A DNA stretch of 32,000 bases from Trichodesmium erythraeum IMS101 (GTDB taxonomy: Bacteria > Cyanobacteriota > Cyanobacteriia > Cyanobacteriales > Microcoleaceae). Position numbers and translations under genes: made by a program. This document shows, one piece after another, positions 4,594 to 21,316 of this stretch. A model generated the notes under the pieces. It was not told the origin of the DNA. It was given only the letters and a program-made list of their open reading frames with translations, and made no database searches. Position 1 is the stretch's first letter; the number at the start of each line of letters is the position of its first letter. Location of the stretch: positions 1,770,001 to 1,802,000 of the forward strand of contig NC_008312.1 in assembly GCF_000014265.1 (NCBI RefSeq). The letters are read 5' to 3'.

Positions 4594-4988
4594 CTAAAAA
4601 TTAAGGTAAAACTAATTTAATTTAATTTAATCACTAATTATAGCTATGGAAATAGATAGTAAATGCAAAATTTGTATTTGCGAAAGGAGGTGTTATTAAA
4701 GTTTCAACTAGTAGTAAATTTTTGAAAATATGGCTCTAGTCTAATTACATATTAAAGATTTTTTTTCTTTGAGACCAAAGAAAAAAAATATCAATTTTAA
4801 CACATTTTTATTTAACCCAATTTCAATTATATTTGTCACCGAGTATAATTATTTATTTGAGGTCTAACTTTTATATTTGATAGCATATTTCAAGTATATA
4901 AAGTACAAATATTAATGATAAAACCTTGATAGAAAAGACATATTGCCTGTAATAGCTTTACCTGACACTTGATGACATCTATTTTATA

Positions 4989-5900
4989 TTAACTGCGACG
5001 TATCCAACCATTAATAGTAAAGCGACTATCCGCAAAATCTTGAGAAGGACAAGTTACCGGCAAAACTTCATGCATATAACGACTGAGGAAAAATACAATA
5101 GTATTATTTGTAGGTTCTATACTTTTAAATGTTTGAGCTTTTACATAGTATTTTCCTTGAATTTTACTATCATAAATTATTAGCTTACCTTCTGTAAATG
5201 CTTTAGGTTCTCGATAAAAATAGTAAACATAAGTAAGAACTCTAGTTGCAGTATCAGGAGAACCATTATCATTATGAATTTTATAAAAGTTATTATTGTT
5301 ATGAGCTGTTAACTGACTTTCAATTTCAGCAATTGAAAATACAGGAATACTCAACTTATTTAAAACATCAGGAAAAATTTCTTTAATTCTATTAACTATC
5401 AATTCTTGGAATTTTGGGAAAGAGTACAATACTAAAGAACGACGATAATTTTCAGCTTTAGTTGATGTTGTAGTTGGAGAAAAATCTGATTTTCTTTGCA
5501 AAACATAATTCAATAATTGTTTATTTTCTGATTGGCTTAGAAAATTTTCTATCAGTAAATAATGAGATTCTAAATTGTTTATTTTAGGAGTAGTATTAGT
5601 AGAATTTTTGAGATTATTTTTAGTATCTTGTGGCTGTAAATTCTGTAAAGAAATTGGTGGTTCGGTTACCATTCCGACTAAATGTTCACTGGGAAAACAT
5701 AAAGCAGAATGACCTTCTGCTAGAGGAATTTGAAATAGGGTAGAATTTTCATTTTTTTGATGTTTAGATAATAATGTTTTGGCTAAAAGTTGTAGTAAGG
5801 GTGCATCAGATTTGAGATAAATAGTATATTGATGCCCTCCTGCTAATAGGAGTTGAATTTTTACTTCTTGGGGTTCGCTTTCGGATACAGTAGTTATCAT
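4989..5900 (-). CDS. 2OG-Fe(II) oxygenase superfamily protein (prolyl-hydroxylase-like C-terminal domain) with an uncharacterised N-terminal domain
   Basis: 303 aa, ATG start. The C-terminal half carries the HxD...H...R signature in the usual order: KIHNDN, then RYMHEVLPV, then SRFTINGWI. The layout resembles 2OG-FeII_Oxy_3-type domains. The N-terminal ~110 aa are unassigned. Confidence 0.65.
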   Translation of the reverse strand: MITTVSESEPQEVKIQLLLAGGHQYTIYLKSDAPLLQLLAKTLLSKHQKNENSTLFQIPLAEGHSALCFPSEHLVGMVTEPPISLQNLQPQDTKNNLKNSTNTTPKINNLESHYLLIENFLSQSENKQLLNYVLQRKSDFSPTTTSTKAENYRRSLVLYSFPKFQELIVNRIKEIFPDVLNKLSIPVFSIAEIESQLTAHNNNNFYKIHNDNGSPDTATRVLTYVYYFYREPKAFTEGKLIIYDSKIQGKYYVKAQTFKSIEPTNNTIVFFLSRYMHEVLPVTCPSQDFADSRFTINGWIRRS

Positions 5901-5970
5901 ATTTTTGATAAATAATCAATGTCTTAAATTGGTTAATAGTTTGTAATGCCTCACAGCTTTATAGGAGAGT

Positions 5971-8900
5971 TTTTATTGTAGCACTTATGAAAAAACAGAC
6001 ATATTATATTGATAGTAAATAACTATTCCACTCGCCAAAATTGCTCTAAGTAAAATGAAAATATCCTCTCCCACATCCGACTTTTTCTCATCTCAAAAAT
6101 TCTGAGCAGAGTCAATTTTATTTTACCGCTTCTGGAGAAATAGATACATCATATTAATTACTAATTTTATTTTGTCGCTTCTAGAGAAATAGATACATCA
6201 TCTTAATTACTGAATCGCCAAAATTACTCTAAGTAAAATGAAAATATCCTCTCCCACATCCGACTTTTTCTCATCTCAAAAATTATGAGCAGAGTCAATT
6301 TAATTTTGCCGCTTTTGGAGAAATAAATACATCATATTAATTACTCATGTGATTTTGTCGCTTCTGGAGAAATAGATACATCATCTTAATTACTGAATCG
6401 CCAAAATTGCTCTAAGTAAAATGAAAATATCCTCTCCCACATCCGACTTTTTCTCATCTCAAAAATTATGAGCAGAGTCAATTTAATTTTGTCACTTCTG
6501 GAGAAATAGATACATCATATTAATTACTCATTTTATTTTGTCGCTTCTGGAGAAATAGATACATCATCTTAATTACTGAATCGCCAAAATTGCTCTAAGT
6601 AAAATGAAAATATCCTCTCCCACATCCGACTTTTTCTCATCTCAAAAATTCTGAGCAGAGTCAATTTAATTTTGTCACTTCTGGAGAAATAGATACATCA
6701 TATTAATTACTAATTTTATTTTGTCGCTTCTGGAGAAATAGATACATTATATTAATTACTGAATCACCAAAATTGCCCTAAGTAAAATGAAACTATCCTC
6801 TCCCATATCCGACTTTTTCTCATCTCAAAAATTCTGAGCAGAGTCAATTTAATTTTGTCACTTCTGGAGAAATAGATACATCATATTAATTACTAATTTT
6901 ATTTTGTCGCTTCTGGAGAAATAGATACATCATATTAATTACTGAATCGCCAAAATTGCTCTAAGTAAAATGAAAATATCCTTTCCCACATCTGACTTTT
7001 TCTCATCTCAAAAATTCTGAGCAGAGTCAATTTAATTTTGTCACTTCTGGAGAGATAGATACATCATATTAATTACTAATTTAATTTTGTCGCTTCTGGA
7101 GAAATAGATACATCATCTTAATTACTGAATCGCCAAAATTGCTCTAAGTAAAATGAAAATATCCTCTCCCACATCCGACTTTTTCTCATCTCAAAAATTC
7201 TGAGCAGAGTCAATTTAATTTTGTCACTTCTGGAGAAATAGATACATCATATTAATTACTAATTTTATTTTGTCGCTTCTGGAGAAATAGATACATCATC
7301 TTAATTACTGAATCGCCAAAATTGCTCTAAGTAAAATGAAAATATCCTTTCCCACATCCGACTTTTTCTCATCTCAAAAATTCTGAGCAGAGTCAATTTA
7401 ATTTTGCCACTTCTGGAGAAATAAATACATCATATTAATTACTCATTTTATTTTGTCGCTTCTGGAGAAATAGATACATCATCTTAATTACTGAATCGCC
7501 AAAATTGCTCTAAGTAAAATGAAAATATCCTTTCCCACATCCGACTTTTTCTCATCTCAAAAATTCTGAGCAGAGTCAATTTAATTTTGTCACTTCTGGA
7601 GAAATAGATACATCATATTAATTACTAATTTTATTTTGTCGCTTCTGGAGAAATAGATACATCATCTTAATTACTGAATCGCCAAAATTGCTCTAAGTAA
7701 AATGAAAATATCCTTTCCCACATCCGACTTTTTCTCATCTCAAAAATTCTGAGCAGAGTCAATTTAATTTTGCCACTTCTGGAGAAATAGATACATCATA
7801 TTAATTACTCATTTTATTTTGTCGCTTCTGGATAAATAGATACATCATATTAATTACTGAATCGCCAAAATTGCTCTAAGTAAAATGAAAATATCCTCTC
7901 CCACATCCGACTTTTTCTCATCTCAAAAATTCTGAGCAGAGTCAATTTAATTTTGTCACTTCTGGAGAAATAGATACATCATATTAATTACTCATTTTAT
8001 TTTGTCGCTTCTGGATAAATAGATACATCATATTAATTACTGAATCGCCAAAATTGCTCTAAGTAAAATGAAAATATCCTCTTCCATATCCGACTTTTTC
8101 TCATCTCAAAAATTCTGAGCAGAGTCAATTTAATTTTGTCACTTCTAGAGAAATAGATACATCATATTAATTACTCATGTGATTTTGTCGCTTCTGGAGA
8201 AATAGATACATCATATTAATTACTGAATCGCCAAAATTGCTCTAAGTAAAATGAAAATATCCTTTCCCACATCCGACTTTTTCTCATCTCAAAAATTCTG
8301 AGCAGAGTCAATTTAATTTTGCCACTTCTGGAGAAATAGATACATCATCTTAATTACTGAATCGCCAAAATTGCTCTAAGTAAAATGAAAATATCCTCTC
8401 CCACATCCGACTTTTTCTCATCTCAAAAATTCTGAGCAGAGTCAATTTAATTTTGTCACTTCTAGAGAAATAGATACATCATATTAATTACTCATGTGAT
8501 TTTGTCGTTTCTGGAGAAATAGATACATCATATTAATTACTGAATCGCCAAAATTGCTCTAAGTAAAATGAAAATATCCTCTCCCACATCCGACTTTTTC
8601 TCATCTCAAAAATTCTGAGCAGAGTCAATTTAATTTTGTCACTTCTGGAGAAATAGATACATCATATTAATTACTAATTTTATTTTGTCACTTCTGGAGA
8701 AATAGATACATCATATTAATTACTGAATCGCCAAAATTGCTCTAAGTAAAATGAAAATATCCTTTCCCACATCCGACTTTTTCTCATCTCAAAAATTCTG
8801 AGCAGAGTAAATTTAATTTTGCCGCTTCTGGAGAAATAAATACATCATATTAATGACTAATTTTATTTTGTCGCTTTTGGAGAAATAGATACATCATATT

Positions 8901-11900
8901 AATTACTGAATCGCCAAAATTGCTCTAAGTAAAATGAAACTATCCTCTTCCATATCCGACTTTTTCTCATCTCAAAAATTCTGAGCAGAGTCAATTTAAT
9001 TTTGCCACTTTTGGAGAAATAAATACATCATATTAATTACTCATTTTATTTTGTCGCTTCTGGATAAATAGATACATTATATTAATTACTGAATCGCCAA
9101 AATTACTCTAAGTAAAATGAAACTATCCTCTTCCATATCCGACTTTTTCTCATCTCAAAAATTCTGAGCAGAGTCAATTTAATTTTGCCACTTTTGGAGA
9201 AATAAATACATCATATTAATTACTCATTTTATTTTGTCGCTTCTGGATAAATAGATACATCATATTAATTACTGAATCGCCAAAATTGCTCTAAGTAAAA
9301 TGAAAATATCCTTTCCCACATCTGACTTTTTCTCATCTCAAAAATTCTGAGCAGAGTCAATTTTATTTTGCCGCTTCTAGAGAAATAGATACATCATATT
9401 AATTACTGAATCGCCAAAATTGCTCTAAGTAAAATGAAAATATCCTCTCCCACATCCGACTTTTTCTCATCTCAAAAATTCTGAGCAGAGTCAATTTAAT
9501 TTTGTCACTTCTGGAGAAATAGATACATCATATTAATTACTCATTTTATTTTGTCGCTTCTGGATAAATAGATACATCATATTAATTACTGAATCGCCAA
9601 AATTGCTCTAAGTAAAATGAAAATATCCTTTCCCACATCCGACTTTTTCTCATCTCAAAAATTCTGAGCAGAGTCAATTTAATTTTGTCACTTCTAGAGA
9701 AATAGATACATCATATTAATTACTCATTTTATTTTGTCGCTTCTGGATAAATAGATACATCATATTAATTACTGAATCGCCAAAATTGCTCTAAGTAAAA
9801 TGAAAATATCCTTTCCCACATCCGACTTTTTCTCATCTCAAAAATTCTGAGCAGAGTCAATTTAATTTTGCCGCTTTTGGAGAAATAAATACATCATATT
9901 AATTACTCATTTTATTTTGTCACTTCTGGATAAATAGATACATCATATTAATTACTGAATCGCCAAAATTGCTTTAAGTAAAATGAAAATATCCTTTCCC
10001 AAATCCGACTTTTTCTCATCTCAAAAATTCTGAGCAGAGTCAATTTAATTTTGCCACTTATGGAGAAATAAATACATCATATTAATGACTAATTTTATTT
10101 TGTCGCTTCTGGAGAAATAGATACATTATATTAATTACTGAATCGCCAAAATTGCTTTAAGTAAAATGAAAATATCCTTTCCCACATCCGACTTTTTCTC
10201 ATCTCAAAAATTCTGAGCAGAGTCAATTTAATTTTGCCGCTTTTGGAGAAATAAATACATCATATTAATTACTGAATCGCCAAAATTGCTTTAAGTAAAA
10301 TGAAAATATCCTTTCCCAAATCCGACTTTTTCTCATCTCAAAAATTCTGAGCAGAGTCAATTTAATTTTGCCACTTATGGAGAAATAAATACATCATATT
10401 AATGACTAATTTTATTTTGTCGCTTCTGGAGAAATAGATACATTATATTAATTACTGAATCGCCAAAATTGCTCTAAGTAAAATGAAACTATCCTCTTCC
10501 ATATCCGACTTTTTCTCATCTCAAAAATTCTGAGCAGAGTCAATTTAATTTTGCCACTTTTGGAGAAATAAATACATCATATTAATTACTCATTTTATTT
10601 TGTCGCTTCTGGATAAATAGATACATTATATTAATTACTGAATCGCCAAAATTACTCTAAGTAAAATGAAACTATCCTCTTCCATATCCGACTTTTTCTC
10701 ATCTCAAAAATTCTGAGCAGAGTCAATTTAATTTTGCCACTTTTGGAGAAATAAATACATCATATTAATTACTCATTTTATTTTGTCGCTTCTGGATAAA
10801 TAGATACATCATATTAATTACTGAATCGCCAAAATTGCTCTAAGTAAAATGAAAATATCCTTTCCCACATCTGACTTTTTCTCATCTCAAAAATTCTGAG
10901 CAGAGTCAATTTTATTTTGCCGCTTCTAGAGAAATAGATACATCATATTAATTACTGAATCGCCAAAATTGCTCTAAGTAAAATGAAAATATCCTCTCCC
11001 ACATCCGACTTTTTCTCATCTCAAAAATTCTGAGCAGAGTCAATTTAATTTTGTCACTTCTGGAGAAATAGATACATCATATTAATTACTCATTTTATTT
11101 TGTCGCTTCTGGATAAATAGATACATCATATTAATTACTGAATCGCCAAAATTGCTCTAAGTAAAATGAAAATATCCTTTCCCACATCCGACTTTTTCTC
11201 ATCTCAAAAATTCTGAGCAGAGTCAATTTAATTTTGTCACTTCTAGAGAAATAGATACATCATATTAATTACTCATTTTATTTTGTCGCTTCTGGATAAA
11301 TAGATACATCATATTAATTACTGAATCGCCAAAATTGCTCTAAGTAAAATGAAAATATCCTTTCCCACATCCGACTTTTTCTCATCTCAAAAATTCTGAG
11401 CAGAGTCAATTTAATTTTGCCGCTTTTGGAGAAATAAATACATCATATTAATTACTCATTTTATTTTGTCACTTCTGGATAAATAGATACATCATATTAA
11501 TTACTGAATCGCCAAAATTGCTTTAAGTAAAATGAAAATATCCTTTCCCAAATCCGACTTTTTCTCATCTCAAAAATTCTGAGCAGAGTCAATTTAATTT
11601 TGCCACTTATGGAGAAATAAATACATCATATTAATGACTAATTTTATTTTGTCGCTTCTGGAGAAATAGATACATTATATTAATTACTGAATCGCCAAAA
11701 TTGCTTTAAGTAAAATGAAAATATCCTTTCCCACATCCGACTTTTTCTCATCTCAAAAATTCTGAGCAGAGTCAATTTAATTTTGCCGCTTTTGGAGAAA
11801 TAAATACATCATATTAATTACTCATTTTATTTTGTCACTTCTGGATAAATAGATACATCATATTAATTACTGAATCGCCAAAATTGCTTTAAGTAAAATG

Positions 11901-12346
11901 AAAATATCCTTTCCCAAATCCGACTTTTTCTCATCTCAAAAATTCTGAGCAGAGTCAATTTAATTTTGCCACTTATGGAGAAATAAATACATCATATTAA
12001 TGACTAATTTTATTTTGTCGCTTCTGGAGAAATAGATACATTATATTAATTACTGAATCGCCAAAATTGCTTTAAGTAAAATGAAAATATCCTTTCCCAC
12101 ATCCGACTTTTTCTCATCTCAAAAATTCTGAGCAGAGTCAATTTAATTTTGCCACTTATGGAGAAATAAATACATCATATTAATGACTAATTTTATTTTG
12201 TCGCTTCTGGAGAAATAGATACATTATATTAATTACTGAATCGCCAAAATTGCTTTAAGTAAAATGAAAATATCCTTTCCCACATCCGACTTTTTCTCAT
12301 CTCAAAAATTCTGAGCAGAGTCAATTTAATTTTGTCACTTCTGGAG
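5971..12346. repeat. 6.3-kb non-coding tandem array: 31 x 183 bp, 4 x 134 bp and 1 truncated (106 bp) unit, preceded by a decayed half-unit
   Basis: Unit starts (TCGCCAAAATT..) were read at 6032, 6215, 6398 ... 12241 with exact 183-bp spacing. Units at 8228, 9277, 10143 and 10826 are 134 bp. There is no ORF >=60 aa on either strand. 5971-6031 resembles a degraded 49-bp sub-repeat. Confidence 0.97.
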
Positions 12347-14285: not shown

Positions 14286-15884
14286 TTATTTAAAACTCCG
14301 CTTTTCCATTAGACGTAGCTCAAGAGACTCTGTTACTTTTCTGAGCTCCCCAATAACTTTTATATCATCATCATATTTAAACTTTTCCATCTGTTTTACC
14401 GTATCTTTTAGTTGTTTTACTAATGATTCTAATTTGTCAATATTAAAATTATTTTGATGTTCGTAGATTAGTTTTATTGCTTCTAGTCTAATTGTGAAAG
14501 ATTCTTTAGTATCCTTAATCCTAGCAAGTAGTTTCTTTAAATTCTTATAATCAAGACAGTTTAGTTTTCTCAAAATTCTTTTTCTATATAAGTGGTAACC
14601 TATAGTAATCACAACTGCTACAATTACTACTAAGATAGCAGACCATTGGATAGTAGATATAAAACGCCGTTTTTCTATACTTTTGTTCAAGTATTCAAAC
14701 CTCTCCTGGGTATTTTTAACTGATAACCGAGTTTCTCCTAACTTCTGAAATATTGACTTTTGCAGAGACTTATAACTATCAAGTTCATTCTGTATTTTTT
14801 CTTTCAAAGAAGGAAGTTCATTAACCCTGAAATTATTAACATTTTCTACCCTTCTTTGAAGATTAGGTTTTTGACTTAATGCCCCCTGAGTAAATCTTGG
14901 AGCTTTCAGAAGATCGCGACCTTCAAAATATAAGTTATTAAGGGGTGTGATTCTATCCTCTATTTTATCAGATTCCTTTCTTAAATTATCAACTAAAATT
15001 TTAGTCTTTTTTTCAGCTTGAGAAATTTGATCAAATAAATCATTTATGAGGAATAAATTATTTTCTGTACCACTAATAATTTCCTTATTTAATGTCAAAC
15101 TTTTCACGTTTTCATATTCACTAATCTGAAGCTCAAAATTGTCAGATTCTTTTTCTATAGTTTTAATCTTACGAATAAGCTCTGATTTTTCTTGTGGAAT
15201 TGTTTGTATAACACTGTCTATATTATCAATTGTTTGATCAACAAAATCCAACTCACGATTCGCACATTCTATCCAATTATCTATCTGTTCTCTAGTAATT
15301 AATCTAGTATCTACAACCTTTTTTTGTGCAGCTAGCCAATTATTCCAAGAAGGAAGAAATCTTTTGGCATCTGAAACATTTTCTTCAATCCTTATTAAAT
15401 TATTACTAAAAATTTTAAAGTTATTTGAGCTTGAATTTGTAGACTCTTTTAGTGGCAAATAAATATCTCTTAATTTATTACAATACTCATTCTTTTTAGC
15501 TAAATATTTTTCATCGCCAACTTCTTGATTATTATTGGCTAAACTGCATATATTTTCTAGCTCAGATATCAAACTATCAAGGTCTTCACCAATAGACCTA
15601 ATACTACCTTTTATTTTCTCTAAATTCCCTTGTGCTTGATCTACATATTTTTCTTGATACTTAACTTCATTCTTAAATTTCCAATAAATATTATTAATTC
15701 TATCAATTTTTGATTGAGAGGCTCTACCAGGGGGTGGCTGTCTGTAAAGTTCTTGATAATTTTCTGAATTTCTCACCTTATTTGATAGGCTTAACTCCTC
15801 TGCCAATGAAATTTCTAAACTCTCTATCTTTTCAGAAACAGTTTGATTTAATTTAGTTTCCAATTGCGTTACTTTTTCTTTCAC
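14286..15884 (-). CDS. 532-aa coiled-coil protein with a single TM helix near the C-terminus (cassette gene 4), function unknown
   Basis: GTG-initiated ORF 24 nt after the stop of the upstream ORF. About 410 aa are heptad-like and rich in E/K/N/L/I. A hydrophobic helix follows (WSAILVVIVAVVITIGYHLY plus RKRILRK), then a ~95-aa helical tail. No enzymatic motif recognised. Confidence 0.6.
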   Translation of the reverse strand: MKEKVTQLETKLNQTVSEKIESLEISLAEELSLSNKVRNSENYQELYRQPPPGRASQSKIDRINNIYWKFKNEVKYQEKYVDQAQGNLEKIKGSIRSIGEDLDSLISELENICSLANNNQEVGDEKYLAKKNEYCNKLRDIYLPLKESTNSSSNNFKIFSNNLIRIEENVSDAKRFLPSWNNWLAAQKKVVDTRLITREQIDNWIECANRELDFVDQTIDNIDSVIQTIPQEKSELIRKIKTIEKESDNFELQISEYENVKSLTLNKEIISGTENNLFLINDLFDQISQAEKKTKILVDNLRKESDKIEDRITPLNNLYFEGRDLLKAPRFTQGALSQKPNLQRRVENVNNFRVNELPSLKEKIQNELDSYKSLQKSIFQKLGETRLSVKNTQERFEYLNKSIEKRRFISTIQWSAILVVIVAVVITIGYHLYRKRILRKLNCLDYKNLKKLLARIKDTKESFTIRLEAIKLIYEHQNNFNIDKLESLVKQLKDTVKQMEKFKYDDDIKVIGELRKVTESLELRLMEKRSFK

Positions 15885-15908
15885 TAATTCAAGCTCTGAT
15901 AAACTAAA

Positions 15909-16274
15909 TTATGGAGGTTGATACAGTTGACGGACAGCAAGTATACAAAATACTAATAATATAATAATAATTGGATTTTTCCAGCAAAATTTAGCAACAT
16001 AATAATGCCATCCAACTATAATTGACTTAGGAATAGCTATTCCCGATCTGAAATAAGCAAATATTGAATAGGCTAAAGCAAAAATACAATAGACAAACGG
16101 TAAAAGCATAACAATTCTACTTTGGCTTTCCTGAAAAAGAAACCATAATAGCCAAAGATATACTAGGGCAATAAAAGTAGTTAAAGTATATCCAAAAGCT
16201 AAAGGTAAAGTTATACAAAAAAACCAATTCCAAAAAGAATTTTTAGTGAGCGATCGCTGATTATACATCTCCAA
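15909..16274 (-). CDS. small polytopic membrane protein, ~4 TM helices (cassette gene 3), function unknown
   Basis: 121 aa from the TTG at 16274. An ATG at 16266-16268 gives 119 aa. Either start overlaps the stop (16261-16263) of the upstream ORF, which suggests translational coupling. Strongly hydrophobic (FCITLPLAFGYTLTTFIALVYLWLLWFLF..). Confidence 0.55.
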   Translation of the reverse strand: MEMYNQRSLTKNSFWNWFFCITLPLAFGYTLTTFIALVYLWLLWFLFQESQSRIVMLLPFVYCIFALAYSIFAYFRSGIAIPKSIIVGWHYYVAKFCWKNPIIIILLVFCILAVRQLYQPP

Positions 16275-16851
16275 TTAAACCTCTATAAATTGCTGTAGAA
16301 AAACCGTTATAAACTTTTAGATATAATTCAAAACGAACAGAATTTCTTAACAAATATTGCAGCATAATTATCCAAATATTAATGTTAAATTTAGTTCTAG
16401 ATGCGTAGGTAAGAAGAGTAATAGCTGCTGCATCTGCAATACTTGTATCCCTGCGTTGAAGAAGCATTTTAAACAAACCAAGAGGGAGAAAAAAGAAGCT
16501 ACTATAGCCATTTGAAGATAACCTACTCAGGAATTTTAAAACTCTTAAGGGACTACAAGGATCATATTCTTTATGGGATAAATCAAAATTTTTCCGCTTG
16601 AGGAGTTGTGCCACAAAACTTTGAATAAACCCACTCAGGAGCTTTTTGTCATCAGCTCTGACAAATGAAAGGCCATTTACAACTGCTGTCGCTAATACAG
16701 GGTCTCTAGATGCAACTTTAGGGTCTAATATCTTATGAAGTTCCTTAGAAATACCAATTGAAATTGCTATTGTTCTGAATAACCAAAAATTAATTTCTCC
16801 TTTCTGGAGTATTTCCTTCAAGCCATTTTCAACAAGATAGCGAGCTGCCAA
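16261..16851 (-). CDS. 196-aa helical protein (cassette gene 2), in frame with and probably the detached C-terminal region of the upstream NTPase
   Basis: The track start is a TTG at 16849-16851. The frame is the same as ORF 16867-18537 and is separated from it only by TAA (16867-16869) and five sense codons (R A A D Y). No Shine-Dalgarno sequence, no family recognised. Confidence 0.5.
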   Translation of the reverse strand: MAARYLVENGLKEILQKGEINFWLFRTIAISIGISKELHKILDPKVASRDPVLATAVVNGLSFVRADDKKLLSGFIQSFVAQLLKRKNFDLSHKEYDPCSPLRVLKFLSRLSSNGYSSFFFLPLGLFKMLLQRRDTSIADAAAITLLTYASRTKFNINIWIIMLQYLLRNSVRFELYLKVYNGFSTAIYRGLIGDV

Positions 16852-16866
16852 ATAGTCAGCAGCTCT

Positions 16867-18537
16867 TTAATTAAAAAATCTAGAAAAATAATCATTATTG
16901 GCATCTAATTCTATTAGGCGATATTGTTCTGCCAGATCCATAATACTAGGAATTACAATAAAAAAATCAAATTTATTTTGACTTCTCAAACCTAAATTTT
17001 GCCACTGCAACTGAGAGGTATTTAAGATTTTCAGTATTCTTATAAACTGTCTATCACTTTCAATAATTTTGAGTTCTTGGATTTTATCTACTGATAGTTC
17101 ATAAGATTGATATTGAGCTAACCTTTGGCTTATTTTTTTGTCAAAATTGACTATATCATTTTTCAAATATTTGTATTTTTCATATAGTGAATTAACAATA
17201 CTATCATTGGAAATACTTACACCGTAATGAGAAGTTTGTTGAATTTTTAAAGATATCCTCATAAGATGAAAGCTCAAAACTGATAATACTTCCAAAAGGT
17301 ATTTAAATAGGACTGGTTCTATTTTTTCAAAACGGTTTTGTGGATTTATATCCATACCTTTTAATATCTCCCGTTTTAACTCTAGATCGTGCAAACTGCT
17401 GATAGATGGGATGCGATTTTTTGTATCAGCAAAATCTGATTTATCAGAAGAGAATGAAACTTGATATAGCCATAACGATAAATAGTAAGGGTTCCTTAAA
17501 AAGGATTCCTGTTCTGCATTAGTATTTATGATTGTCAAAATAGTTTTTCTAATTTGATTCTGGGCTAAAGTATCGTGTTGCAAACTTGTTAATCGCTTAT
17601 TTAAAAGTTCTTTAATTTGCAGTACACTCATGGGTTTTATTCTGATATTTGCTACTTGCAAAGTATTAGCATACGCTTTATATTCTTCTTCTCTACATGA
17701 TAAAATCCATCTAGTTTTATTACCGCTATTTTTCATTAAAATTGATAAATAATCAAAGAGAGTTTCCCGTTTACTTTTGTCTATAAACTCATCTAAAGCA
17801 TCAATAATAATCACAAAATTGAGAGATAGTTTCTTATTCCATAAAACTATAAAATCTTTAAACTCAGGCTTTGATAACTTACCATTAAGTTCATATACAT
17901 TTGTAATAAATGCCAGAATTTTTGTTATATTTTTACCATGCTTGTTTAACACTTTTTCAACATCATTAGCATGAATAAAAATGGGAATAAAATCTCCTAT
18001 GCTTTCGGAAAATTCTTTGGTATAGTTTGCAAGTGCTTTATATAAAGTTGTAGACTTTCCACTTCCTGGAGGACCGTATATAAATACCCTAGATTTGTTT
18101 GGAGATAACAAGTATTTATCAAGATTTGCTATGTTAGTTCGCTGACTACCTCCTTTTTCTTCATAAGCTTGTTGAGACATCAGACCATTTGGATTTCCTG
18201 GCTCTCCGGATAAACTTACATAATTACTTTTTAGATCAAATCCAAGTTCAAATTCTACTTCCTGGTTTACAGCAGTCAGATAATTGTCAATGACTTTTTT
18301 ATCTCTTACTGTTAATAAACGCCTAAATGTATTTCTAGTCTTGTAATACTTTATAAACCCAGAAAATAACAAGTAAATTACTAGGATACCCCAAATGAAT
18401 AGGACAATATAAGACAGGTATTTCAATAATTTATTGTCACTGGATAAATAATTTAATGCAATTGGAAGTGAAATACTTATTACAGTTAAAAATATTCTCC
18501 ATAATACTTTTTGTTCTTTTTCAGCTATGCTTAACAT
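16867..18537 (-). CDS. membrane-anchored NACHT/STAND-like P-loop NTPase (cassette gene 1)
   Basis: 556 aa, ATG start. Two N-terminal TM helices (~res 12-32 and 41-62). Walker A is GPPGSGKST (res 155-163, nt 18049-18075). Walker B is FVIIIDALDEF (res 241-251). These are followed in NACHT-like order by WILSCREEE, IRIKPMSVLQIKELL and RNPYYLSLWL. The domain call rests on motif order only. Confidence 0.65.
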   Translation of the reverse strand: MLSIAEKEQKVLWRIFLTVISISLPIALNYLSSDNKLLKYLSYIVLFIWGILVIYLLFSGFIKYYKTRNTFRRLLTVRDKKVIDNYLTAVNQEVEFELGFDLKSNYVSLSGEPGNPNGLMSQQAYEEKGGSQRTNIANLDKYLLSPNKSRVFIYGPPGSGKSTTLYKALANYTKEFSESIGDFIPIFIHANDVEKVLNKHGKNITKILAFITNVYELNGKLSKPEFKDFIVLWNKKLSLNFVIIIDALDEFIDKSKRETLFDYLSILMKNSGNKTRWILSCREEEYKAYANTLQVANIRIKPMSVLQIKELLNKRLTSLQHDTLAQNQIRKTILTIINTNAEQESFLRNPYYLSLWLYQVSFSSDKSDFADTKNRIPSISSLHDLELKREILKGMDINPQNRFEKIEPVLFKYLLEVLSVLSFHLMRISLKIQQTSHYGVSISNDSIVNSLYEKYKYLKNDIVNFDKKISQRLAQYQSYELSVDKIQELKIIESDRQFIRILKILNTSQLQWQNLGLRSQNKFDFFIVIPSIMDLAEQYRLIELDANNDYFSRFFN

Positions 18538-18614
18538 ATCCTTTATTTGCTATTTCCTAAAGTCATAAAAATTTGTACCTAATTATGCCTGAAAAGCTAG
18601 TGTAATATTTATCA

Positions 18615-18719
18615 TATAGCAGTCGAAGTATAGCACTACTGGTAACTAAGAATTCAGAAGTAATCTCTGAGATAATTTTAGCATTTAGTAATGTCCTAAA
18701 CTTTGCTTCGACTGCTATA
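18615..18719. mobile_element. intact ~105-bp MITE-like element with 14-bp perfect terminal inverted repeats
   Basis: TATAGCAGTCGAAG (18615-18628) is the exact reverse complement of CTTCGACTGCTATA (18706-18719). It has no coding capacity. Related copies lie at 697-805 and 1161-1195. It sits 78 bp upstream of the cassette ATG. Confidence 0.6.
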
Positions 18720-19539
18720 ATATTTGGAAGCGATCGCCTCTAAGAAAAAATTACCATAACTATAAAAATCTAGTTATACTCAGAGAAGCGATCGCTAATT
18801 CCTAAACAATAAATTTTTACCTAAATAACACATTGTCAGATTTTTTTTCACAATAAAAGCAAGAGCATTTTACCCCTGCACTAAACATTTTTTTTTAAAG
18901 TATGTCTCATTATTTTCAATATAAATTCCCATTAAAAATGATTAGAAAAAAAACTATTATAGAGCCTGAGACTATAAAAACAAGGAATTTATTGTTGAAT
19001 AATTAAATAGCATAAATACTGAAAACACTGTTTAATTAGTTAAATATTTACAATAGCAAAAGCCAGAAAAAAATTAGCAATATTTGGGGACTGTGCAACT
19101 TATCATAACCCTCAAGAATCTCAAGAATATTTAATGTTAATCAATCAAGATTTACCAGAAGAAGAATCGTTGATAAATTGTACAAATTTTTCTCCAAATG
19201 CTCCTCAAAAAAACCTGTTGAAGATAATTGCCTGCAAGACAAAAAAAATAATCAAAAAATTTGATAATCTTTGCAGTTATTTTAAACTATTTAAGTTAAT
19301 AATTAATTGTCTAAAACTTTTTCAGGATGAAATTTTGCTACAACCTATGCGAGGATTGCTATATTAATAATTATATTTACCAACCACAAGAATTACTTTT
19401 ATAAAACTATTCATAAATTAATTCCTTATAGCTTAAGAAAAAAAACTTAATCGTAACTTTGAAAACAGATAAATAATGAATACTTTTTCCCCATTTATCA
19501 TTCCTAATTCCCTTTTAATACATCTAATTTTTGATACAT

Positions 19540-20155: not shown

Positions 20156-21316
20156 TCATAGTTGTCTTACTCTCTCAGTAAAAGCTACCCTACCAAAAAC
20201 CTTTAAACTTTCCTCTCGCAACCATTGACCATCAGACCTTTTATCCTCTCCCTTCAGCATCTCTATACAAGCATTAGCTACTGCTTCTGGACTTCGGTGA
20301 GGTACCCGCCATCCTAACCTTCCATCTTGTAAAGGTTCCGCCGAACCATCAGCATCTCCAGACAAAACAGGCACTCCACAGGCCATTGCCTCTAAATAAA
20401 CAATACCAAAGCCTTCAAAAGAAGGCATCACATAAGCATCAGCTACCTGATAATGTTTAACCAAATTCTCTGTGGGCACAAAACCTGCAAATACCACTTT
20501 TTCACCTATTCCTAAATCTTGAGCTAACTTAGCCAAGCGAGGTTGGTCATCTCCCCGTCCAATTACTAAATACTTGACTTCTGGAAAAAATTGCAGTATA
20601 ATTGGCAGAGATTTAATGGTAACATCAACGCCTTTATAGGGGTCTCCCGACCAAAGTCTAGCTACAGTCATTAATACCTTTGCTCCCTGAAGATTGTAAG
20701 CCTTAATCAAATCTACCGGTGATGGTCCAGGAATAAACTTATCTCCATCCACCATACAAGGCAACAAATGAAACTTTTCCGGATTGAGATGGTTACTTTC
20801 ACAACAGCGATCGCGACTGTAACGACTAATAGTTAGAATTTTAGTAGCTTGTTTTAATGCCTGTTGATATTTATCTGGTAGTGGCTCCCATACTTCCTTA
20901 CCATAAGTTAAAACTGTATAGGGAATACCCAGAGGTACACACAAAGCTTTAACCAATGGAGCCAAATTAATATGACCACAAAAAACTTGTAATGGTTGTT
21001 TTTTAATTAAAAACCATAGTAATGTTGTAGCTAACTTTAATCTTCCTAACCAAACAAACTTAGTTTTAAAATAATAGAAATTTAGGGTCTTCGACTGATA
21101 GGGATTTTCACAATATTGACCATCCCTTAGTAAGAAAATATCTGATTCTTGAAAGGTGTCATTAGGTTTTACATTATTTTTTAAGTCTATGTAAGCTTGA
21201 AAAATATCTCTTACATAAGATTGAATGCCACCTTCAGAAGAAAAAATTTCCAAAAAAACAAATATATTTCTTTTTTTTTTCTCAACTTGTTTATTCAATT
21301 TTATCTCCAAATTCAA
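20156..21316 (-). CDS. glycosyltransferase, GT4 family (Glycos_transf_1 type)
   Basis: 386 aa with the C-terminal GT-B signature (ADAYVMPSFEGFGIVYLEAMACGVPVLSGD). The N-terminus is typical (NIFVFLEIFSSEGGIQSY). There is no ATG at the 5' end and several TTG candidates, so the start is uncertain. Confidence 0.85.
   Translation of the reverse strand: MNLEIKLNKQVEKKKRNIFVFLEIFSSEGGIQSYVRDIFQAYIDLKNNVKPNDTFQESDIFLLRDGQYCENPYQSKTLNFYYFKTKFVWLGRLKLATTLLWFLIKKQPLQVFCGHINLAPLVKALCVPLGIPYTVLTYGKEVWEPLPDKYQQALKQATKILTISRYSRDRCCESNHLNPEKFHLLPCMVDGDKFIPGPSPVDLIKAYNLQGAKVLMTVARLWSGDPYKGVDVTIKSLPIILQFFPEVKYLVIGRGDDQPRLAKLAQDLGIGEKVVFAGFVPTENLVKHYQVADAYVMPSFEGFGIVYLEAMACGVPVLSGDADGSAEPLQDGRLGWRVPHRSPEAVANACIEMLKGEDKRSDGQWLREESLKVFGRVAFTERVRQL

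Follow-up and report, generated by a model that had tools for sequence, protein, structure and literature searches.

On the minus strand of the Trichodesmium erythraeum IMS101 chromosome, beside purH, four open reading frames (ORFs) annotated as 'hypothetical' follow each other so closely that they resemble an operon. A preliminary description, made from the DNA letters, took them as such: a NACHT/STAND-like NTPase, a helical protein, a small polytopic membrane protein and a coiled-coil protein, forming together a candidate conflict or cell-fate system. The question raised by this locus is whether it is indeed a working four-gene system. We analysed a window of 32,000 nucleotides (NC_008312.1, positions 1,770,001 to 1,802,000), in which the cassette corresponds to Tery_1132 to Tery_1129 (the 556-aa ORF being Tery_1132, ABG50494.1) and purH to ABG50490.1. 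The region consists of two translationally coupled genes, one for a NACHT protein and one for a membrane partner, and the four ORFs are their fragments. The explanation that we prefer overall, and consider probable though by a measured degree only, is that of a dead two-gene NOD-like receptor (NLR)-like pair in this genome, intact copies of which would act as a conflict or cell-death module.

The ORF listing reproduced the coordinates given before, including the gaps of 15, -14 and 24 nt: ORF1 lies at 18537..16867 (556 aa), ORF2 at 16851..16261 (196 aa), ORF3 at 16274..15909 (121 aa) and ORF4 at 15884..14286 (532 aa), all on the minus strand. In DNA of about 30% G+C long ORFs are unlikely by chance, and each of the four fragments matches family hidden Markov models (HMMs) with E = 1e-46 to 1e-202. 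ORF1 and ORF2 share one frame, interrupted solely by the TAA at 16867-16869; ORF3 and ORF4 share another, interrupted solely by the TAA at 15909-15911. Since the frames are continuous save for these single codons, and since the intact homologues are single proteins of 758 aa (NACHT) and 660 aa (partner), we count two genes and not four. The closest NACHT homologues, P0001, P0002 (Okeania sp. SIO3I5), P0004 and P0006 among them, run uninterrupted over 755-759 aa; where NACHT relatives read ...FSRFLNQRAADYLAARY... at the break, the window reads ...FSRFFN*RAADYLAARY.... Okeania and other relatives possess one partner of 642-660 aa, which reads ...YKPPEFGFSDLE... at the second break.

Identity of the window NACHT product to the intact 758-aa P0001 is 93%, and that of the partner product is 91% to the intact 660-aa P0039 and 72% to P0040 from Okeania. 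The NACHT fragments occupy positions 41-584 and 586-778 of the subfamily HMM, and the partner fragments positions 1-118 and 121-643 of the partner HMM. Locus L040 represents an intact syntenic arrangement of petB, petD, a GT4 glycosyltransferase gene, a zinc-ribbon gene, the NACHT gene (758 aa), the partner gene (660 aa) and purH; the window cassette is 96.0% identical to it at the nucleotide level, with zero indels and exactly two nonsense differences. The probable partner start is ATG 16268, which creates an 8-nt overlap with the NACHT stop, as in the Okeania locus L001 and in L040. The four-gene operon described before is thus a two-gene unit with one in-frame TAA at each junction, and the polytopic and coiled-coil proteins, listed there separately, belong to one polypeptide. 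The two genes and their lesions are as follows.

16261..18537, minus strand: NACHT pseudogene of the 758-aa type (Tery_1132 and the 196-aa ORF), from frame, identity to P0001, HMM and fold
14286..16268, minus strand: partner pseudogene of the 660-aa type, from frame, identity to P0039 and P0040, and HMM
16867..16869, minus strand: premature TAA for CAA (Gln557) compared with intact L040, between a beta-hairpin (542-554) and a helix (557-571)
15909..15911, minus strand: premature TAA for GAA (Glu120) compared with intact L040, just past the N-terminal transmembrane (TM) domain of the partner

Both stops are genuine. GCA_018457135.1 (T. erythraeum GBRTRLIN201) and at least five independent Sequence Read Archive (SRA) assemblies contain the cassette with 100% identity, and reassignment of the stop codon was ruled out, as TAA normally ends petB, petD and other window genes. 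Gln557 is nearly invariant, and the first stop falls within a nearly invariant motif, FLNQRAxDYLAA. The decay has gone further in L039, a sister lineage whose housekeeping genes are nearly identical to those of the window (0-0.26% divergence): it has both window stops, a 2-nt insertion, two extra stops in the NACHT gene and one extra stop in the partner gene. Between the window and L039 the cassette differs at 54 of 4252 nt and the flanking coding sequences (CDS) at 5 of 4118 nt (Fisher p = 2e-11), a roughly tenfold excess; the cassette divergence is also higher than that of intergenic DNA (14 differences in 2372 nt, p = 0.007). On the post-stop branches, polarised with L040, non-synonymous to synonymous changes (N:S) stand at 31:9 together with three new stops, which is near the neutral expectation. 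No uninterrupted frame under purifying selection was found for the cassette in the window. From the two stops, the further decay in L039 and the neutral-like substitution with N:S of about 3:1, we read the cassette as a recently inactivated pseudogene pair, very probably non-functional in IMS101; the functional cassette initially proposed for this genome is thereby contradicted. About 40% of the T. erythraeum genome is non-coding DNA, and transposase remnants and other pseudogenes are known from it (PMC4143802). A literature search returned no mention of Tery_1129 to Tery_1132.

Other accounts of the interruptions were weighed against this one. Sequencing or assembly errors, which would leave the genes intact in the organism, can be set aside with near certainty: the IMS101 reference, GCA_018457135.1 and the SRA assemblies agree, and L039 has the same two stops. 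Four separate genes forming one functional operon in IMS101 would suit the tight spacing on one strand, the nearby alternative starts (TTG 16851 and GTG 15884) and the calling of the same four ORFs in several assemblies. This account is nevertheless very improbable in our view, with junctions made of a single in-frame TAA at positions where all relatives have sense codons, a first break inside FLNQRAxDYLAA, extra stops and a frameshift in the sister lineage, and a neutral-like substitution density with an N:S of about 3:1. Somewhat more credit, but still little, goes to functional gene fission or read-through, by which the system would continue to work via re-initiation at the TTG and GTG codons or via low-level read-through. 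In its favour, both lesions are substitutions that preserve the frame, the break in the partner coincides with a domain boundary, L010 likewise has a partner in two pieces, and cultured as well as field T. erythraeum are fixed for the alleles; the window branch also lacks an N:S excess relative to L009. The same account has to accommodate TAA stops that normally end petB, petD and other genes, a NACHT break inside a conserved motif, with a predicted beta-hairpin before it and a helix after it, decay that continues in L039, a cassette divergence ten times that of the flanking CDS and at or above the intergenic rate, and restart codons with no evident Shine-Dalgarno-like sequence ahead of them. 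As for the pseudogene reading itself, two points weigh against it. Since the common ancestor with L009, the window lineage has accumulated N:S of 14:7 and the intact lineage one of 10:4, which do not differ, and from which it follows that the stops are recent; and some residual function of the fragments remains formally conceivable.

What the two genes encoded can be read from the window together with their intact relatives. By motifs, domain matches and modelled fold, the product of gene 1 is a NACHT-clade STAND NTPase, in agreement with its first assignment, and has the following parts.

18352..18507, minus strand: two N-terminal TM helices, residues about 11-62 (hydropathy; AlphaFold helices 2-31 and 36-68)
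17638..18102, minus strand: NACHT nucleotide-binding domain, residues about 146-300, including Walker B IIIDALDEF and the motif WILSCREEE, whose columns are invariant in a 28-sequence alignment (Pfam NACHT and NPHP3_N)
18049-18075, minus strand: Walker A GPPGSGKST, residues 155-163, invariant in a 28-sequence alignment
16261..16851, minus strand: ORF2, that is the end of the FLNQRAxDYLAA-motif helix and an all-helical C-terminal arm of about 180 aa (frame, HMM, model)

All motifs pointed out in the preliminary description (GPPGSGKST with K161 as the Walker A lysine, VIIIDALDEF, WILSCREEE and RNPYYLSLW) are present, and the two TM helices that it placed at the N-terminus are supported by hydropathy and by the AlphaFold model. 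Among the 28 relatives, residues G155, P157, G158, G160, K161, S162 and T163 of Walker A and D246, A247, L248, D249 and E250 of Walker B are invariant, the latter fitting hhhhD[GAS]hDE. The window fragment exceeds the Pfam NACHT (PF05729) cut-off marginally (27.1 versus 26.7 bits) and that of NPHP3_N by more (35 versus 24.8 bits); relatives reach 36.7-46.5 bits for Pfam NACHT. As a structure for gene 1 we used the AlphaFold model (pLDDT 78.9) of P0001, whose sequence shares 93% identity with that of the window protein. Besides the two TM helices it shows a P-loop domain, regions with helices and beta-hairpins, and some ten helices at the C-terminus (573-754), and it resembles the NBD-HD-WHD fold of solved NACHT proteins. 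Its best Foldseek matches in the PDB are NOD2 (5irm, E = 9e-8) and NLRC4 (4kxf), these two at E of about 1e-7 to 1e-6 with probability 1.0, and NLRP9 and NLRP14; the NACHT family sequence profile found no PDB chain at E <= 1e-3.

Net charge after the second TM helix is +3.4 across the NACHT family, and the NACHT domain is predicted to lie on the cytoplasmic side. The two-TM (2TM) module sits about 90 aa ahead of Walker A in most family members by hydropathy; the hairpin keeps its hydrophobicity with a sequence identity of merely 17.7%. The NTPase had been described as lacking a sensor arm, which is incorrect as stated: the 196-aa ORF is in frame with ORF1 and the stop is inside a conserved motif, so this ORF is the C-terminal arm of the NTPase. 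The arm has no Pfam match and is conserved, not variable, with a mean pairwise identity of 45.5% across the family. Scans of PHROGs, NCBIfam and PADLOC gave no meaningful family for any fragment outside the NACHT region and, together with Pfam, no effector domain, as had been noted from the letters.

The partner falls into no family of Pfam, NCBIfam, PADLOC or PHROGs. Its AlphaFold model is fully helical (pLDDT 85.1) with a small helical C-terminal domain, and divides as follows.

15921..16247, minus strand: N-terminal membrane domain with 3-4 TM helices, residues about 8-116 (AlphaFold helices 8-48, 52-75, 79-97 and 99-116; hydropathy; loop charges)
14664..15896, minus strand: helical bundle of about 410 aa, residues about 125-535, with six helices of about 40-70 residues (model)
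14589..14660, minus strand: last TM helix, residues 537-560 (hydropathy, model, loop charges)
14289..14588, minus strand: conserved C-terminal domain, residues 561-660, with the motif DDDIKVxxELRKVxESLELRLMEKR (conservation)

The bundle is the most variable region of the partner (20% mean pairwise identity) and the C-terminal domain the most conserved one (36.6%, rising to 50% in the last 30 aa). In 20 family members the loops 75-97 and 561-585 carry net charges of +2.7 and +3.4, with exactly two TM helices between them; from these flanking positive loops the bundle is predicted to be extracytoplasmic (periplasmic or lumenal) and the C-terminal tail cytoplasmic. A fold search with the partner model against the PDB and BFVD returned nothing at E <= 1e-3. 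Matches to ClyA and Hbl-B (probability 0.2-0.6, E > 0.5) were dismissed as generic long-helix similarity, and those of the partner profile in the PDB, to MCP (8e-7), designed bundles and tropomyosin, are of coiled-coil type and were treated as compositional.

HMMs of the NACHT subfamily and of the partner were run on all retrieved loci. Each of the 12 non-redundant loci with a full-length subfamily NACHT (L001/16, L002, L009, L010, L011/12, L013/14, L015, L017 and L021-L024) has the partner gene directly downstream on that strand, and so has the window, the coding sequences of the two overlapping or abutting; the generic NACHT/AAA matches (L025-L038) have no partner. The intact NACHT gene and its partner are therefore an obligate module, and the co-occurrence expected for a functional unit was found in other genomes, though for two genes. 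The partners are homologous end to end at 22-34% identity; among 1.84 billion representatives the family amounts to 29 clusters at E <= 1e-3, mostly of 640-660 aa. A further protein search with a diverse partner alignment gave the same 7 proteins, and a contig search with a narrower one gave only 5 loci. All named hosts are cyanobacteria (Trichodesmium, Okeania, Symploca and Microcystis), and viral contigs searched with the NACHT alignment contained no relatives. Splits occur elsewhere as well: besides the two-piece partner of L010, L015 has a detached EAD10 segment. In one SRA assembly (L005, 7713-10779) a partner fragment of 522 aa is followed by a Peptidase_S41 gene and not by purH, an arrangement explained either by structural variation or by chimerism of the contig.

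Relatives differ from each other in the N-terminal region, against a constant set of NACHT core, C-terminal arm and partner. An extension is absent in Trichodesmium, Okeania and L002, and other relatives have one of about 50 aa. EAD10 followed by the 2TM hairpin was found in P0010-12, P0020 and L015; P0031-34 and L024 have EAD8 or a coiled coil and no TM helices, with EAD8 in P0032. In L010 a caspase (Peptidase_C14) gene at 4972-5976 lies directly upstream of an EAD10-2TM-NACHT gene at 6001-8532, and the C-terminal 29 aa of the caspase are 55% identical to a segment of the NACHT N-terminus (E = 3e-7; ..NINIGQIGKARDINLG.. versus ..NINVRDIGKARDIILG..), which makes the two a candidate adaptor or amyloid-like signalling pair. 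In L013 (5562-5987 and 6001-8382) and L014 an upstream 141-aa protein and the NACHT protein share a 33-aa N-terminal motif (..Q.G.AG.N..Q, E = 2e-5), and several 793-aa relatives have the same N-terminal extension as the L013 NACHT. The window NACHT has no EAD and starts directly with the first TM helix; neither an N-terminal extension, nor an upstream partner gene, nor a shared short motif was found in the window.

Ratios of non-synonymous to synonymous rates (dN/dS) range from 0.26 to 0.59 in the NACHT gene and from 0.40 to 0.68 in the partner, and the neighbours in L001, L002 and L015 include TnpB, resolvases, ParE, Imm30 and another NACHT gene. The adaptors, the shared motifs, the high dN/dS and these mobile and conflict-type neighbours favour a role of the intact pair as an NLR-like conflict or cell-death module, to which we give slightly better than even chances. 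The conflict module suggested by the first reading thus gains from EAD10/EAD8 adaptors and one adjacent caspase in relatives, and loses in that PADLOC, consulted as the defence-system check, matched no known defence model. The competing view is that the intact pair is a non-immune membrane signalling or structural module, active for example in envelope or thylakoid surveillance or in filament or cell-cell physiology. It would be in line with the missing effector domain and defence-model match, with the exclusively cyanobacterial named hosts, with housekeeping neighbours in the window, L011 and L013, and with a C-terminal arm that is conserved, unlike the hypervariable sensors typical of STAND proteins. 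It fits less well with the EAD adaptors, caspase neighbour and adaptor-like motifs of relatives, with toxin-antitoxin, resolvase, TnpB and extra NACHT genes around L001, L002 and L015, with the high dN/dS, and with patchy presence, repeated loss and pseudogenisation and the signs of lateral exchange described below; we hold it to be unlikely, if worth keeping in mind.

How an intact pair might operate can be sketched in steps. The variable extracytoplasmic bundle of the partner would sense an event at the level of the envelope, and its conserved cytoplasmic tail would inform the NACHT protein through the latter's conserved C-terminal arm, whereupon the NTPase may oligomerise at the membrane. 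Output would then be delegated to whatever occupies the N-terminus, be it an EAD10/EAD8 adaptor or a motif shared with the product of a neighbouring gene (in one case a caspase); in the adaptor-less form of Trichodesmium and Okeania the TM hairpins, the partner or both might cluster and perturb the membrane. Taken jointly, with the bundle as sensor, the tail engaging the arm and output through adaptors or membrane perturbation, this scheme is a tentative one, with the odds clearly against all its parts being right. Several observations weigh against the conflict reading and its mechanism: a number of loci, the window, L011 and L013 among them, are situated among housekeeping genes and not in defence islands; no effector was recognised in the adaptor-less clade; in PADLOC no system matched, the weak and short hits being those of mad8 (19 aa, E = 0.006) and LmuB (a coiled-coil stretch, E = 2.6e-5); the contact between partner tail and NACHT arm is proposed from conservation alone; and the topology comes solely from hydropathy and the positive-inside rule, the first hydrophobic stretch of 34 aa being ambiguous.

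Among systems described so far, the closest are the bNACHT antiphage proteins (10.1101/2022.07.19.500537), with which the family shares the NACHT module with Walker A and a DALDE-type Walker B, the NOD2/NLRC4-like fold, a layout with the output position at the N-terminus, the NTPase in the centre and an arm at the C-terminus, and an enrichment in cyanobacteria. TM-containing architectures are a recognised category of bNACHT, and bacterial NACHT genes are reported to occur rarely in operons, those operons being poorly conserved (10.1101/2022.07.19.500537). Unlike bNACHT, the present family is always coupled to one dedicated membrane partner of about 650 aa, has a TM hairpin at the N-terminus and is known from sequence alone, the window copy moreover being a pseudogene. 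The EAD-coupled STAND systems of multicellular bacteria, whose logic is effector recruitment (PMC7159879, PMC8195603), resemble the relatives with N-terminal EAD10/EAD8 and the one with a caspase neighbour, and differ from the Trichodesmium/Okeania form, which is devoid of EAD; a keyword search within parts of these two papers found no description of a constant membrane partner.

BASS pairs (10.1101/2020.01.06.895854; Bab/Agp, 10.1101/2024.11.07.622273) are comparable in that the NACHT N-terminus of L010 and L013 has a motif of about 30 aa that is also present in the adjacent upstream product, and in L010 its position at the caspase C-terminus is the geometry that defines such pairs. In the window, by contrast, there is no such motif or partner gene, and in L013 both proteins carry the motif at the N-terminus; the resemblance is one of shared motifs. 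In structure the animal NLRs NOD2 and NLRC4 come closest, yet with only about 11% sequence identity; unlike them the window protein has neither leucine-rich repeats nor CARD and is membrane-anchored. EruA (NCBIfam NF058535) matches locally over 118 residues in the NACHT region, and membership was rejected at 34 bits versus a cut-off of 1000 for a model of 1318 positions.

The history of the locus adds a further aspect. Between IMS101 and the L040 lineage, synonymous divergence (dS) is 0.30 for petB, 0.36 for petD, 0.31 for the zinc-ribbon gene and 0.26 for purH, whereas it is 0.061 for NACHT and 0.074 for the partner, four to five times below the flanks (compared spans: window 14286-18250 and L040 5732-9983). 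The low-divergence tract extends from about 18250, some hundreds of bases into the NACHT gene from its 5' end, to about 14500, near the partner stop, and a similar, weaker low-dS pattern exists with respect to Okeania. Cassette dS far below flanking dS suggests an exchange of the cassette among Trichodesmium lineages that postdates their split by a good margin and predates the inactivation; the exchange appears as a pattern in dS. It tells against this that L040 is a metagenomic contig, so that the low-dS tract could in principle reflect chimeric assembly, although the intact proteins of L040 recur independently in L041, L042 and L009. In Okeania SIO1I7 and SIO2B3 the syntenic site, from the zinc-ribbon gene to purH, retains just the last 125 or so codons of the partner:

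L019 (SIO2B3) 5944-6375: partner remnant
L020 (SIO1I7) 5944-6375: partner remnant

The accessory island surmised from the DNA letters is in keeping with these two remnants, found at the site proposed for comparison with sister strains, and with the low cassette dS. Its greater AT-richness holds in part: cassette GC is 0.29-0.34 as compared to 0.35 in purH, but GC at third codon positions (GC3), 0.21-0.24, is within the neighbour range of 0.16-0.35, and a foreign origin by base composition was for this reason rejected. The exchange between lineages would likewise not be visible from composition. Upstream of the remnant both Okeania loci have a gene of the endonuclease/exonuclease/phosphatase family, and in L020 a bPH_2 gene and a TnpB gene lie downstream of it, before purH.

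Several consequences follow for annotation and for the wider picture of such proteins. Tery_1129 to Tery_1132 should become two pseudogenes instead of four genes, and the case cautions that tight strings of ORFs in decaying genomes may be misread as multi-gene operons. The bacterial NACHT proteins investigated so far have mostly been described as one-gene systems responding to cues in the cytoplasm. The NACHT protein here is itself of a known kind; new is its strict coupling to a dedicated membrane partner of unmatched fold. If the intact pair were a two-component bacterial NLR, with a membrane-anchored NACHT switch, ligand sensing by the large, fast-evolving extracytoplasmic bundle of a separate envelope-spanning partner, and movement between Trichodesmium lineages as a cassette, a proposal that we regard as speculative and rather unlikely in its full form, the cell would relay to an internal NLR what happens beyond the cytoplasm, for example that a phage adsorbs or injects, that the envelope is damaged or that non-kin filaments make contact. 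A paired transmembrane sensor would, if true, widen the known triggers of prokaryotic NLR-like proteins. With apparent exchange, two knockouts by point mutation, decay in a sister population and deletion to a remnant in Okeania, the locus shows a turnover like that of conflict genes in an ecologically important nitrogen fixer.

The surroundings of the cassette contain a number of further elements. The upstream spacer of about 1 kb with a miniature inverted-repeat transposable element (MITE), both mentioned in the preliminary description, were recovered:

18538..19539, no strand assigned: upstream non-coding spacer of 1002 nt, with a MITE-like element and a repeat of about 110 nt inside
18615-18719: MITE-like element of about 105 nt with 19-nt terminal inverted repeats (TATAGCAGTCGAAG...)
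18717-18828: repeat of about 110 nt upstream of the NACHT gene

A second MITE-like copy (81% identity) is located at 697-790. The stretch 18613-19506 has no counterpart in L040, where the spacer is 421 nt long, and the MITE-like element is at the edge of homology. Two copies of the repeat of about 110 nt (77-80% identity) occur upstream of the Okeania sp. SIO3I5 orthologue (L001 6874-6986 and 7818-7929). Promoter and terminator scans gave nothing above shuffled background, an apparent 'terminator' at 16865-16842 being dismissed because it sits inside the coding frame, and Rfam had zero matches across the whole window. A HIP1 palindrome (GCGATCGC), a hallmark of cyanobacteria, is present at 16250-16257 within the gene overlap region.

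The GT4 glycosyltransferase gene (20156-21316) is the most diverged flanking gene between the lineages (13% of nucleotides). Its product matches both PF20706 'GT4-conflict' and Glycos_transf_1, probably through cross-matching between related GT4 families. On the other side, adjoining purH, there is a non-coding tandem array of about 6.3 kb (6032-12346), composed of some 35 copies of a 183-nt unit at 95-97% identity; a variant unit of 134 nt is short of one 49-nt sub-repeat. ORFs in the array do not exceed 49 aa, and its GC skew stays constant at -0.25. The short-read contigs L003, L004 and L039 terminate inside it, and in L040 it is represented by about 400 nt of diverged copies only (11920-12313). 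A different tandem array of more than 6 kb is transcribed very highly in IMS101 (PMC4143802).

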